A DNA stretch of 64,000 nt from Raja brachyura. Taxonomy: Eukaryota. Position 1 is the first letter of the stretch, and the number at the start of each line of letters is the position of its first letter. Location of the stretch: the NCBI GenBank assembly GCA_963514005.1, contig OY740804.1, positions 5,580,001 to 5,644,000 of the forward strand, given 5' to 3'. This document shows positions 13,139-28,821 of this stretch, piece after piece. Position numbers and translations under genes: made by a program. Under the pieces are notes generated by a model that saw only the letters and a list, made by a program, of their open reading frames with translations, was not told where the DNA came from and ran no database searches.

Positions 13139-13161
13139 TTTATTGACAACAACCATTTATT
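13139..13161 (-). terminator. Two AATAAA polyadenylation signals of gene 3
   Basis: tttatt at 13139-13144 and 13156-13161, ~200 nt after the terminal-exon stop; conserved at 32311-32330 and 43430-43435. Confidence 0.65.
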
Positions 13162-13363
13162 TAGAAGCATGATGTTGCATTATTATTCACTAATCTGTGA
13201 AATACATTTTTTTCCAGGGAGTTGAATGCATATAATATAGTTCAACAGAGTATAATACTCTGGAGCTGCAGAAACCATGCAAAGTTTAAAACAATAGATC
13301 GAAGCTGACGAAATAAACCTTGGAATGGGTGACAAAAATTATGGTGGTGCAAGCTAGGTGTCC

Positions 13364-13411
13364 TCAATGTAATTCGTGAGTCGAGTGGCGAGGTTCTGAA
13401 TCATTGCGTCT
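13364..13411 (-). pseudogene. Gene 3 terminal exon, short cytoplasmic tail RRNDSEPRHSTHELH* (downstream of premature stops)
   Basis: TTTTGCAG acceptor, phase 0 matching the TM exon end; paralog at 32532-32579. Confidence 0.65.
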
Positions 13412-14022
13412 CTGCAAAAGACAATGTGAAGTCATCAAACTAGTGGGAACGACGCTTTATTTGACCGGTCCACTCCCAATACAATGCTGTCTGGAAGATA
13501 GACCCCAACGAATCCACACCGGTCACATAAATCACCCTGAACACATACAATCTGACAAAACCTCGTGATATCATCTACCTAGAGATTTGGTTTGTCTTCA
13601 GGATATGAAAACGTGCACGGTTTTTGTTTCTATCTACGGACAGGGTATTTGAAAGCATTAACGGAAAGCGTTTGGAAACATTTGGGGGAAGAGAAGTGAT
13701 TGCTTTGTCCAGAGGGTGGTGAATCTATGGATTTCATTGCCAAAAGAATCTGTGAAGGCCAAGTCAATTCACACTGGAGATGCTGCCTGTCCCACTGAGT
13801 TTCTCCAGCATTTTTGTATGTATCCAAATCAACTGATATTTTTAAGGCGGATATTTTCATATTCTTGATAAATAAGGATGTCAATGGTTATGGGGGGAGG
13901 CAGGAGAATTGGATCGCGAGGGAAGGATAGATAAACCGTGATTGGGGGCGGCTTAGATATGATGGGCTGAATGGCCAAATTCTCCTCCTATAATTTATGA
14001 ACCTGATGACAATAAAACCTAC

Positions 14023-14113
14023 CTTAGAGCCTTTTGTGAACACCGCGGTTGAGATACTCCAGATCACAAGCAGGAGAAAGAGCAGTCAGCGCCCCACTTT
14101 CCATGAGATATTA
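14023..14113 (-). pseudogene. Gene 3 activating-type TM exon with nonsense codon (NISWKVGR*LLFLLLVIWSISTAVFTKGSK)
   Basis: 91 nt, CCCAG acceptor and AAG|GTAGGT donor. TGA at 14086-14088 where the paralog at 33111-33201 has TGG. Confidence 0.8.
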
Positions 14114-14838
14114 CTGGGTAAAGGGCAAGAGATACAGAATCAATAAGAGGAAACGAGATGGTTTATCTTTCAAACATTTACCTATTATTTGCTTCATAAT
14201 GAAGTGGAGCGGGGTGAAGCAGCAGAGTCAATGGAGATCATCTTGGAGAAAGAACGCGCGTTGGACTGGTGGTGGGGGGGGGGGGGGGGGGGGGGGGACA
14301 CATATAATCCCCAATTATTGACCTCGTTGCTGGGGCTGGGAATGAGAGACTACGTGGTTAAATGGATTCAGAACAGAGAAATAATTGAGATGGGGCAGTG
14401 AATACAAAGTAGATAGACACTAAATGTTGGAGAAAGCGGGAGCGGCAGCATCTCTGGAGAGAAGGAATGCGTGACGTTTTGGTCGAGACCCTTCTTCAGA
14501 CTGGGAGTCACGGGAGAGGGAAACTGGGGATGTGGAAGGATACAAAGAACAGTATTATACCCTGGGAGAAAGAAAATGCAGCTGCAAGGAAGATTATAAT
14601 AAAATCCATATTGATGGACAGGATTAATAAAACAGGGTCAATTCTAATGGTGGAAGGGAGATGGGGCAATAAATATGGAAATATATGAGGCCAATTAATA
14701 AAATTAATTAAAAATTACAATGCTTAATCTGATGGACTAATAATAAAACAGGATCAATTCTAATTAATTATCCAATTAATAAAATAAAGTAAAAATTATA
14801 ATGCTTAATCTCACACCCTCGATATTACTTTAATTCAC

Positions 14839-25399: not shown

Positions 25400-27085
25400 T
25401 GTTTCAGTCTTGAAATAATTCAAATTGACAAAGAGGTTAAGAATTTGTGTGAGAAAGGAGTTATTGAGAAAACAGGAGAGGATCCACAACAATTGTATCA
25501 AATATTTTCCCCAGACCGAAGAAAGATGGGGGTTGTAGAATCATTTTAGATCTCACACAATTGAATACATTTGTCCAGTATAAACATTTTTAAAATGGAC
25601 ACATTCAACACTGCAATGCAGCTGGTATCAACATGTTGTTATATGGCTACAATAGATTGAAGGATGCATATTTTCGGTCCCAATTCACCATAGTTCGCAG
25701 GAAATTAAAGTTTATGGATGGGACAGCTGTGGCAATACAAAGCTTTGCCTAATGGATTAAGCCAGCACTTGCACTGCTAAGGGCACAAAACACATCGTTA
25801 TGGGTTATCTAGATGACATTTAATTTTCAATTCTAATCAGGAGTCAGCTGGAAAATCAGTCTCAGCAACTACAAGTTTGTTTGAGAAGTTGGGTTCCTGA
25901 TCCATCGAACAAATCTAAGATACAGCCATCCCAAACCATTGATTATCTGGGGTTTGTGATTAACTCAGTTACCATGTTGGTAACTTTACCAATGGATAAG
26001 GTGTTGGATTTGACAAATGTGTGTCAGAACCTGATTAACAAACCTTATCCCTCCATCCGAGAGGTTGCCAAGGTTATTGGTAAATTGGTAGCAGCATTTC
26101 CAGCAGTAGAGTTTGGCCGTCTACATTACCAAAATCTTCAAAGGGCAAAAACTCAACCGCTTTTTCAGCGAGCAGGCCATTTTGATAGGCCAATGCAATT
26201 GCCTAAGGAAGCTTTATCAGAATTACATTGGTGGATTGAGAATGTTCCACAAGCTGCTAAGAACATTTTAGTTCATAAGCCAGTCGTGTTTTTGTAAACT
26301 GACGCAAGTTCTCTCGGATGGGGGGCTACGGATAATGAGACCAGCTGTGGAGGCAGATGGGCTGCCCAAGAGGATTTATTGCTCCAAACATATGGTATTA
26401 ATTATTTGGAGCTACTGGGAGCATTTTATGGCTTAAAAGATTATTGCTCTTCATTAAAAGATTTGCATGTCCAAGTACAAATAGATAATACCACAGCTGT
26501 GGCATATATCAATCACATGGGTGGTGTCAGATCAATATCATGTGATCATCTGGTAAACCAGATGTGGCAATGGTGTATGGCAAAAAATATTTGGCTTTCA
26601 GCTATTTATCTCTCGGGGAGAGACAATGTTGTGGCAGACAAAAGATCACGAATATTTAAAGACAATACAGAATGGATGTTAAATCCACAAATTTTCAAAA
26701 AATATTCTCAGTCGGTATGGAGTACCGGACATTGATCTGTTTGCATCTAGATTGAATCACCAATTGCCCAAATGCGTGTCTTGGGAACACGATCCAGGGG
26801 CAGTAGCGGTGGATGCTTTCTCGCTACACTGGGGAATACGTTCTTTTATGCTTTTCCCCCATTCTGTCTCATTGGGCAATGTCTCAAGAAAATAGCGCAA
26901 GATGCTGCCAAAGGCATTTTGGTGGTGCCAAATTGGCCCACGCAGTCATGGTTCCCATTGATGCTAAAATGATTATTGAACCATGTATGACAATTCCCAG
27001 TTGCGACAATCTGTTGACACAACCAGTAACAAAAGAAATTCATCCATTGCATGATCATATGAATTTGTTAATCTGCAGGTTCTGA
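25400..27085 (+). pseudogene. DIRS pol (RT, RNase H, Dam-methyltransferase-like domain), frameshifted
   Basis: Fragmented ORFs 25881-26297, 26379-26735 and 26772-26972 carry the canonical motifs, separated by stops and frameshifts. Confidence 0.88.
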
Positions 27086-27389
27086 CCAGACCGTTGCAAT
27101 AGTTTGAACTGTCGGACATGACCATGGATGTTATAGATGCAGCTTGGAGGAATAGCACTAAAAACAATATATGTCGCATATAAGGAAATGGGAAGTTTTT
27201 GTACACAGTGAAAAATATCTTATCATACTGCAAACATTTCAAATGTATTGGAGTTCCTTGCTGGGTTACACTTTGATGAGCATTTGAGTTATAGTGCCAT
27301 TAATTGTGCTCGTAGTGCATTGTCATCCTATTTAGGACAAATTTTCGGATCGGGATTCAGTTGGGTCTCACCCATTAGTATCCCGATTC

Positions 27390-28052
27390 ATGAAAGGAAT
27401 TTTCAATAAAAATCCTCCCAAGCCCAGATATACAGAAATTTGGGATGTTAGCATTGTTCTCACTTTGCTTAAACAATGGGCTCCAATTAATTCAATTTCT
27501 TTGCAGAAATTAACATTCAAGATGGTAATGTTAATGGCATTGGTATCAGCTCAAAGAGTACACATTTTGCAATTGTTACGGTTGGATTGCATGCATGTGA
27601 CTACAGATAACATTGTGTTTTATGTTTATGACTTGATCAAACAAAGCAGACCAGGAAGAATTGGAATGAAGGTAATGTTTAAAGCATATCCTATTGATGA
27701 AACATTGTGTGTAGTTAAGCATTTAACTCAATACATTGAGGTAACCAAAAAACTCAGAGGTTCTGAGAAAGCGTTATTGATAACACACAAAAAGCCACAT
27801 ACAAAAGTTTCAGTTCAAACCATTTCTAGATGGTTAAAACAGGTTTTGGGTCTAGCAGGAATAGACACTGATGTGTTTAAATCTCACTCCACTAGGGCGG
27901 CAGCTACGTCCGTGGCGAAGGTACAGGACGTACCACTCGATAAAATTTTAGAGGCCACAGGGTGGTCTAGAGAAGAGATTTTTTCAAAGTTCTACAATAA
28001 ACCTGTTGTCACGGTGCCAGGATTTGGACACGCAGTACTGGGTTCTCTTTAA
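27390..28052 (+). CDS. DIRS tyrosine recombinase catalytic domain (open 220-aa segment)
   Basis: SAQR...HSTR...GWS...FY catalytic R/H-x-x-R/W/Y signature; the N-terminal part (~27120-27390) is frameshifted. Confidence 0.85.
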   Translation: MKGIFNKNPPKPRYTEIWDVSIVLTLLKQWAPINSISLQKLTFKMVMLMALVSAQRVHILQLLRLDCMHVTTDNIVFYVYDLIKQSRPGRIGMKVMFKAYPIDETLCVVKHLTQYIEVTKKLRGSEKALLITHKKPHTKVSVQTISRWLKQVLGLAGIDTDVFKSHSTRAAATSVAKVQDVPLDKILEATGWSREEIFSKFYNKPVVTVPGFGHAVLGSL

Positions 28053-28784
28053 ATGCTTGCTTTGTTTTATATTATCGATTTATATTATTGATTTATGTTA
28101 CCATTGACATCATTTATCAATTTATTTTGTAATTTTCCGCTGCGATAGAGGGGTTATTATTAAAAAAGTTGTTCTTTTTATGATTAAAGGACATTACATA
28201 AATTGTAACAATGTCCTAAAATACTATTTACTCACTACTGTTTTGACTAAACAGAGAGTCGTATGAAATGAATTTACGACATAAAAAACACAGAGCTTTA
28301 AAATCTTCACGTAGTCACTCACGTGACTCCAAAGTAAAATAGTGAGATTAAATGAGAACTTACCTGTTCGAAGTTTGATCTTTATTTTATGAGGAGTTAC
28401 GATGAGGGATTACGTGCCCTCCACTCCCAACCCTCATAATGTAAATAATCATCTGGTAGTTCTAGTCTATTTTGAGCCTTACTATTTTACTTCGGCTATT
28501 GGTTCTGTGTTTTTCATGCCGCTGCTTTGAAGTATGCCGATCCAGCGCCAGGCGGGGCTTCTTCACGTAATCCCTCATCGTAACTCCTCATAAAATAAAG
28601 ATCAAACTTCGAACAGGTAAGTTCTCGTTTAATCTCACTATTTCAGATCCATCACCACAATGCACTGAGTTCCATTTCCCCCATTACACGTCTACACACA
28701 CTTAACCACCTCTGCTGTGGAAAGGGTGCACAGGACCCCAACTAACATTGAACATTTCAATATCCAGATCTGGCTTTCACTCAC

Positions 28785-28821
28785 CGGGCAGCGAGGAGAC
28801 GAGAAGAATGAGAATCCACAT
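28785..28821 (-). CDS. Gene 3 leader exon MWILILLVSSLP
   Basis: ATG, 37 nt, G|GTGAGT donor; joins the V exon as ...SLPVSGAVW. Confidence 0.87.

Follow-up and report, generated by a model that had tools for sequence, protein, structure and literature searches.

What becomes of a receptor gene that has kept its extracellular domains open while losing its membrane anchor? The question is raised by gene 3 of a 64,000-nt stretch of the 2.7-Gb genome of the skate Raja brachyura (C24:5,580,001-5,644,000, where C24 is contig OY740804.1; hereafter the window, whose own positions are used unless C24 or Mb is given). As a first-pass annotation had observed, the leader and four immunoglobulin (Ig) exons of this gene, V1, C2a, V2 and C2b, are open over 1306 nt without a stop or frameshift, and all five have GT-AG splice sites and are in phase 1. 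The same annotation listed several stops in the anchor region and favored conversion of an activating receptor into a soluble protein over simple pseudogenisation. We trace the loss of the anchor to a deletion of the hinge exon and prefer the opposite order: the chance that gene 3 is a young MDIR5-type copy in early decay (an early pseudogene), and not a selected soluble receptor, is in our judgment about even, and this reading is only slightly more likely than that of a secreted protein.

Skate proteins were the best matches of the Ig exons, with C2b 84-85% identical to Amblyraja and Leucoraja models, 82% identical to MDIR3 of the clearnose skate and 80% identical to MDIR5 of that species; the window is therefore part of a skate MDIR cluster. 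MDIRs (modular domain immune-type receptors of cartilaginous fish) form a multigene family that has both activating and inhibitory members and whose relatives are CD300, TREM, FCAR and pIgR (available text of PMC3031540). Gene 3 carries the marks of this family: CD300/pIgR-like V domains are combined modularly with C2-type domains, trees place its domains within those of skate MDIRs, and exon counts place both activating- and inhibitory-type members in the cluster. In a genome search, 37 of the 39 C2 matches and the majority of the V matches fell within about 1 Mb of C24, amounting to dozens of V and C2 exons. We mapped leader, V, C2, hinge, transmembrane (TM) and tail exons over 764 kb, adding to the window 700 kb beside it; the map spans 4.88-5.13 and 5.40-5.91 Mb, with 5.13-5.40 Mb left out, and contains 13 close short-tail TM exons and six long-tail inhibitory-type genes.

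The described protein most like gene 3 in layout is MDIR5 (ABC86800.1, 501 aa), which has the same leader-V-C2-V-C2 order, a TM exon that almost matches that of gene 3, with a basic residue where the helix starts, and a short tail without tyrosine motifs. Unlike gene 3, MDIR5 has the hinge, an exon of 49 nt, and a TM helix that stays in frame (residues 455-490 in the model). MDIR3 (ABC86797.1) and the other inhibitory-type MDIRs, the paired-receptor partners in the cluster, share the V and C2 modules with gene 3 but have a different TM exon and a long tail with tyrosine motifs.

The hinge exon and the stops of the anchor region

In both MDIR5 and MDIR3, the last C2 domain is followed by a cysteine-containing hinge of 16-17 residues and then by the TM segment. 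The hinge is encoded by an exon that runs from phase 1 to phase 2 and that tblastn found in 12 close paralogues, plus two damaged copies. Neither tblastn nor paralogue alignment found a hinge exon between the C2b and TM exons of gene 3. Alignment with two intact paralogues shows that 1.67-1.73 kb, the hinge among them, are missing from gene 3, and the resulting junction was bridged by contigs of samples X1 (organism A), X3 (organism B) and X5 (organism C), with one to three other letters per 240-308. As a replacement phase-1-to-2 exon in this interval we found one weak candidate acceptor/donor pair (14927-14900). Hinge deletions with different ends have occurred independently three times: in gene 3, in gene 1 and at C24:5.896-5.902 Mb. 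Activating-type MDIRs are marked by the hinge exon and by a TM helix that is read in frame and carries a basic residue; in gene 3 the hinge is deleted, and the TM exon is out of frame and carries a TGA. Judged by its exons, gene 3 is a descendant of an activating-type, MDIR5-like receptor but no longer one itself.

This deletion changes how the stops named by the first-pass annotation are to be read. The TGG to TGA change in the TM exon is genuine: TGA is present in contigs of two organism A samples, X1 and X10, which speaks against an assembly error, with the qualification that X1 may be the assembly's own source. All depth of X3 (organism B) and X5 (organism C) has the TGG letter at 14086, so that TGA was seen only in organism A; since such contigs collapse the members of a multigene family, the absence of TGA from B and C is likely, not proven. 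Organism B is about 1.5% divergent from the window (36 differences in 2324 nt, mostly intron). Given that the deletion junction is found in A, B and C and the TGA only in A, the deletion likely came first, and TGA 14088 likely arose after it, on the A lineage. Moreover, direct splicing of C2b to the TM exon puts this TGA out of frame, where it is not read as a stop.

The other two stops are present as letters and are not lesions. The TAG at 15402-15400 had been placed in a stalk exon, a candidate that we ruled out because cDNA-derived proteins of the family carry a different hinge; the region is a conserved intron, and a stop triplet stands at the same position in 11 of 12 close paralogous copies (nine TAG and two TAA), intact genes included. 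The alignment behind this count had 16 rows, three of which fell outside the count (one wrong address and two distant copies). Similarly, the read-through GGT AAG TAG after the C2b donor is a donor feature common in the family, since a stop lies two codons past the last C2 donor at 14 of 20 terminal-type C2 donors. What had looked like a concentration of lesions in the anchor exons thus comes down to an intronic triplet, a family-wide donor feature and a TGA that appears to be a passenger. The outcome that had been proposed, an anchorless product by every route, holds, although its cause is the deletion of the hinge exon and not the listed stops.

The predicted product and its relatives

The C2b exon leaves off in phase 1 whereas the TM exon begins in phase 2, so that their direct splice shifts the frame and predicts a 451-aa precursor without an anchor, closing in a new tail of 16 residues with two cysteines. 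Read-through of the C2b donor and skipping of the TM exon both stop at once; splicing from a GT that lies four bases past the C2b donor would bring the TM exon back into frame. Gene 3 can, as its exons are arranged, give only an anchorless product, which would be a secreted four-domain protein if expressed. The shifted-frame stop lies 41 nt before the last donor, with the tail exon and two AATAAA signals downstream. Nonsense-mediated decay (NMD) does not recognise a stop that lies within 50-55 nt of the last junction (accessible portion of PMC1854916), and this stop, lying inside that window, is therefore predicted to escape. The same stop codon is present in the shifted frame of 10 of the 13 close TM copies, a partial copy and distant types with the same ending being counted apart. 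The stop thus pre-exists in the shifted TM frame, and any loss of the hinge gives this anchorless product.

The loss of the hinge also bears on C2b itself. An extra cysteine occurs in all 16 C2 domains that are followed by a hinge and is missing from 24 of 31 that are followed by a V domain, and it likely pairs with the hinge cysteine. Gene 3 has retained this residue while losing the hinge, so that by this presumed pairing the cysteine either has no partner or would have to find one in the new tail. In AlphaFold models of A. radiata P0124 and of MDIR5 the Ig domains are folded, and the shifted tail and the hinge have a pLDDT (predicted local distance difference test) below 50-55; with such low confidence there, they do not settle the disulphide pairing.

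At the level of predicted features, gene 3 has what a soluble member of a paired family would have: a signal peptide, open Ig domains and no TM segment. Comparable TM-less genes within activating/inhibitory families are LILRA3, LAIR2, carp SITR and the secreted CEACAMs and PSGs (PMC3031540 and PMC2832619, as far as their available text goes), and the secreted CEACAMs arose by nonsense or splice mutations (PMC2832619, likewise). These proteins have been shown to be expressed and secreted, whereas secretion of the gene 3 product is a prediction, and its route differs, in that an asymmetric exon was lost and the TM exon was thereby frame-shifted. Of the samples listed for 13100-22600, none is recorded as RNA, which speaks neither for nor against expression, and the sample contigs that were aligned show no spliced joints. 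Since soluble paired Ig-family members are already known, gene 3 is at most a variant of them. No paper on soluble MDIRs appeared in the literature searched, which did not include the founding description of MDIRs, and an earlier report is possible.

Pfam assigned V1 and V2 to V-set, and C2a and C2b gave weak Ig_2, Ig_3 and Ig_C17orf99 matches. The best solved-structure matches of V1 were CD300f (E 5e-20) and pIgR domains (E ~1e-9 each), and with mammalian pIgR and CD300 it shares the four-cysteine V domain. Unlike gene 3, however, neither of these has C2 domains: pIgR has five V domains and a membrane form that is cleaved, and CD300 has one V domain. A search for short V-only relatives returned one L. 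erinacea protein.

Another hinge-less gene lies 290 kb away, at C24:5,895,685-5,902,200 on the plus strand (L044-L045). It encodes leader-V-C2, and its C2-to-TM intron of 667 nt contains no hinge. Orthologues of its C2 domain are found in L. erinacea XP_055510904 and in A. radiata P0124; the three domains form a clade (support 100/100), with 82% identity as against 63% for the next match. These two proteins and L. erinacea XP_055511094 are annotated with the same ending as the predicted product of gene 3, in the shifted TM frame directly after C2; they are three of 158 fetched proteins and come from two other skate genera. They differ from gene 3 in that they are computed annotation models, named pIgR-like or uncharacterized, and in that two of them belong to this separate C2 clade. 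The three C2 domains of the clade are set apart by 25 or more residue changes and have no stop, for which the chance without selection is 0.007-0.22. A second GT four bases past the C2 donor of the 5.90-Mb gene would, as in gene 3, restore the TM frame. XP_055511094 combines the layout of gene 3 with the same ending, yet this model plainly fuses two genes; its V1 groups with that of gene 3 in a clade of five (support 90, quick tree), whereas the C2b domains do not group. In the C2 tree, gene 3 is outside the conserved hinge-less clade. That clade seems to have lasted across three genera, which makes the 5.90-Mb gene the best candidate for a conserved secreted MDIR, and it is a better lead than gene 3.

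Decay weighed against secretion

The dN/dS comparison suggested by the first-pass annotation was carried out on the Ig exons as pN/pS, the ratio of nonsynonymous to synonymous changes per site, using private letters only, so that its counts are a lower bound on change. The four Ig exons of gene 3 have 17 nonsynonymous and seven synonymous private changes, giving a pN/pS of 0.91 (p 0.82 against neutrality). Genes with all exons open gave 0.86-0.91 and broken or frameshifted genes 0.81-0.87; when the C24:5.554 Mb gene was grouped with the intact ones, the values were 0.86 for intact and 0.87 for broken. With intact genes, broken genes and gene 3 so alike, the test has no power in the MDIR family. 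Ten of the 17 nonsynonymous changes fall on conserved columns, which make up 0.63 of the sites, so that such columns were not avoided. Across the whole cluster, open MDIR genes likewise have pN/pS near 0.9 and no avoidance of conserved columns, and the array behaves as if it were drifting or as if positive and purifying selection were in balance.

One change stands out in V1, where the F-strand glycine has become arginine. Of the 42 V exons scored, all 41 others have glycine at this place, as do 208 of 210 motif matches from the fetched proteins. V1 of gene 3 also has a glycine to valine change that was unseen in 141 matches. Among the differences listed for the organism B contig, which lie on both sides of the arginine codon, none is at that codon, and the change to arginine may predate the A/B split. 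Hits at conserved residues are found in open paralogues as well.

We then asked how long an unselected reading frame would last, using a model in which 4.4% of substitutions are nonsense and 0.05-0.10 frameshifts per substitution are assumed. In the absence of selection, the Ig exons would remain open with a probability of 0.19-0.32 on a branch of 0.8%, 0.02-0.07 on one of 1.9% and at most 0.002 on one of 4.5%. The private divergence of gene 3 is 1.9%, and the age of the deletion lies somewhere in the range of 0.8-4.5%. Within the TM exon, gene 3 has four changes before the shifted stop and one after it, and thus no excess after the stop, whereas the 5.90-Mb gene has two before and eight after, an excess.

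Damage across the cluster was scored in the 11 genes that have a V exon and a close activating-type TM exon. Four have all exons open, four have damage in the anchor only (gene 3, gene 1 and the genes at 5.71 Mb and 5.90 Mb), one has damage in the Ig exons only, and two have both; two further genes, outside this set, are cut inside C2b. This excess of anchor-only cases favors a soluble product but is inflated, because deletions are frequent in the cluster and the in-frame loss of whole Ig exons goes uncounted.

Under the reading of early decay, a single 1.7-kb deletion would first have removed the hinge exon, freeing the TM exon from constraint, and the TGA at 14088 would have followed on the A lineage. 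The time since the deletion, at least 0.8% per lineage, would have been too short for a stop or frameshift to arise in 1.3 kb of Ig exons, and any transcript might still release some soluble protein, unselected. We favor this reading because the cluster turns over fast, the neighbors of gene 3 (window genes 1, 2, 4 and 5) are all damaged and only four of 11 activating-type genes are fully open; because of the glycine to arginine change in V1, the pN/pS value, the conserved columns that were not avoided and the presumably unpaired cysteine of C2b; and because the chance of staying open unselected is appreciable at the youngest age. Several observations weigh against it. The ectodomain frame is whole despite the loss of the anchor and of a conserved V1 glycine, and the chance of this without selection falls to the two lower values given above if the deletion is as old as 1.9% or 4.5%. 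Where the contigs of organisms B and C cover the exons, which they do in part, their differences from gene 3 are silent or missense, with no indel. Intact paralogues share its pN/pS and its hits at conserved residues, so that gene 3 is not singled out; its shifted stop is predicted to escape NMD; anchor-only damage with open Ig exons is found in four genes, and damage to the Ig exons alone in just one; and one hinge-less clade seems to persist across three genera.

That gene 3 is instead a working soluble MDIR strikes us as a real possibility, though a tentative one. The first-pass annotation was right that an activating-type gene has lost its anchor, and a soluble product is possible, as a prediction, because of the open frame, the signal peptide and the predicted escape from NMD. 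Through the shifted splice the gene would then yield a secreted V-C2-V-C2 decoy or opsonin for the ligands of its membrane paralogues; CD300-type V domains likely bind lipids or the surfaces of microbes or dying cells. The canonical splice sites and poly(A) signals fit such a role, as do the position of the stop, its recurrence in most close TM copies, the models with the same ending from two other genera, and the precedents from LILRA3 to the secreted CEACAMs, and so does the fact that three independent hinge deletions and one acceptor loss with a TM stop (5.71-5.72 Mb) all left the Ig exons open. Against it stand the lack of any sign of purifying selection, the arginine in the ligand-distal V1, one or more cysteines that are presumably unpaired, the inflated anchor-only excess and the position of gene 3 outside the conserved hinge-less clade. 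A broader proposal, which we put forward equally tentatively, is that skates repeatedly make secreted receptors from activating MDIRs by loss of the asymmetric hinge exon and the built-in shifted stop, which would yield an anchorless protein that escapes NMD and has cysteines in its tail, the 5.90-Mb gene being an old case that persisted in three genera and gene 3 a recent, independent four-domain recruit, and that these form an undescribed soluble class of CD300/pIgR-like proteins of cartilaginous fish.

Two further explanations carry less weight. It is improbable that gene 3, itself unexpressed, owes its open Ig exons to gene conversion from its paralogues and possibly donates sequence to them in turn. 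The V2 protein sequences of nine other copies are 87-94% identical, exon trees are poorly resolved and discordant between exons, and in SIGLEC16P/SIGLEC11 a pseudogene allele converts a paired receptor (available part of PMC5701461); however, the terminal branches are ordinary (0.022-0.062), and with 24 private letters a recent wholesale conversion is not evident. We regard as very improbable a membrane protein made by another splice, or a protein resembling secretory component for polymeric IgM, a role that the first-pass annotation had also raised. The pIgR/CD300-like V domains and the GT four bases past the C2b donor point that way, but the restored TM frame runs into TGA 14088 before the helix, TM skipping stops at once and the next two genes downstream also lack an in-frame anchor. 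Secretory component is cut from membrane pIgR after transcytosis. The tandem V-only architecture, membrane precursor and cleavage that go with it are not seen in gene 3, whose layout is V-C2-V-C2 without a membrane form, and a secretory-component-like role finds no support; cartilaginous-fish IgM is, moreover, thought unlikely to be transported in the manner of pIgR (PMC4279169, in the text available).

If gene 3 is only a pseudogene, as early decay would have it, it represents no more than the usual turnover of a paired-receptor cluster. Expression of hinge-less MDIRs, if it occurs, would mean that cartilaginous fish possess soluble CD300/pIgR-like proteins beside their membrane pairs, comparable to LILRA3 in mammals and SITR in carp and made by a repeatable exon-loss route; the oldest immunoglobulin-bearing lineage would then offer candidates, open to testing, for humoral innate recognition.

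Feature coordinates and neighboring genes

Features of gene 3, in window positions
Feature	Position	Strand	Remarks
Leader (signal peptide) exon	28785..28821	-	ATG at 28821; phase-1 donor; leader shared with MDIR3/MDIR5
Retroelement insertion, intron 1	23689..28639	+	About 5 kb; broken frames; tyrosine-recombinase
V1 exon	22196..22510	-	CD300/pIgR-type V domain, four Cys; F-strand Gly to Arg at codon 22268-22266
C2a exon	19932..20252	-	Internal-type C2
V2 exon	18563..18874	-	V-set
C2b exon	15725..16045	-	Terminal-type C2; extra Cys that co-occurs with hinge
Stalk exon of the first-pass annotation	15309..15410	-	Conserved intron, not exon
Hinge-deletion junction	15107..15108	.	About 1.7 kb gone, including 49-nt hinge exon (phase 1 to 2)
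TM exon, activating-type	14023..14113	-	Phase-2 start; TGG to TGA at 14088-14086 in TM frame
Shifted-frame tail and stop	14064..14113	-	16 residues, two Cys; TGA 14066-14064, 41 nt before last donor
Cytoplasmic-tail exon, short	13364..13411	-	3' untranslated region if TM frame shifted
Two AATAAA signals (13161, 13144)	13139..13161	-	Kept in paralogue gene 4

The retroelement in intron 1, which we take to be of DIRS type, is a clean insertion that is not present in the paralogous intron of gene 2. It has a PF00589 match at 27336-28049 (E 3.5e-9), and its two other fragments have no Pfam match. Its terminal repeats (28337-28416 and 28564-28643) are 98.75% identical, and the insertion is therefore probably recent.

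The cluster switches strand at C24:5.645 Mb, just outside the window, with minus-strand genes at 5.40-5.64 Mb and plus-strand genes at 5.65-5.90 Mb; the plus-strand side includes three V-V-V-C2-V-C2 genes that are nearly identical to one another and have either inhibitory or activating ends. Gene 1 (window 142-906 plus L018; C24:5,574,000-5,580,906, minus strand) has an open leader-V-C2, a separate deletion of about 0.6 kb that took the hinge, and a TM exon that is open but out of frame. The gene at C24:5,709,550-5,722,300 (plus strand, L025-L026) also has an open leader-V-C2; its hinge acceptor is changed from AG to AA, its TM exon contains a stop, and 10 of its 13 private nonsynonymous changes fall on conserved columns, resembling decay. 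In gene 2 (window 2548-9929) and at C24:5,555,600-5,562,200, C2b is cut at what is apparently the same repeat insertion, while the upstream V and C2a are open; gene 2 also lacks V2. Gene 4 (window 32500-38390) has stops and a long interspersed nuclear element in V, has lost C2 and the hinge, and has an aspartate in the TM helix. Gene 5 (window 47000-57519) is MDIR2-like, with a 1-nt deletion in V and an inhibitory-type tail.

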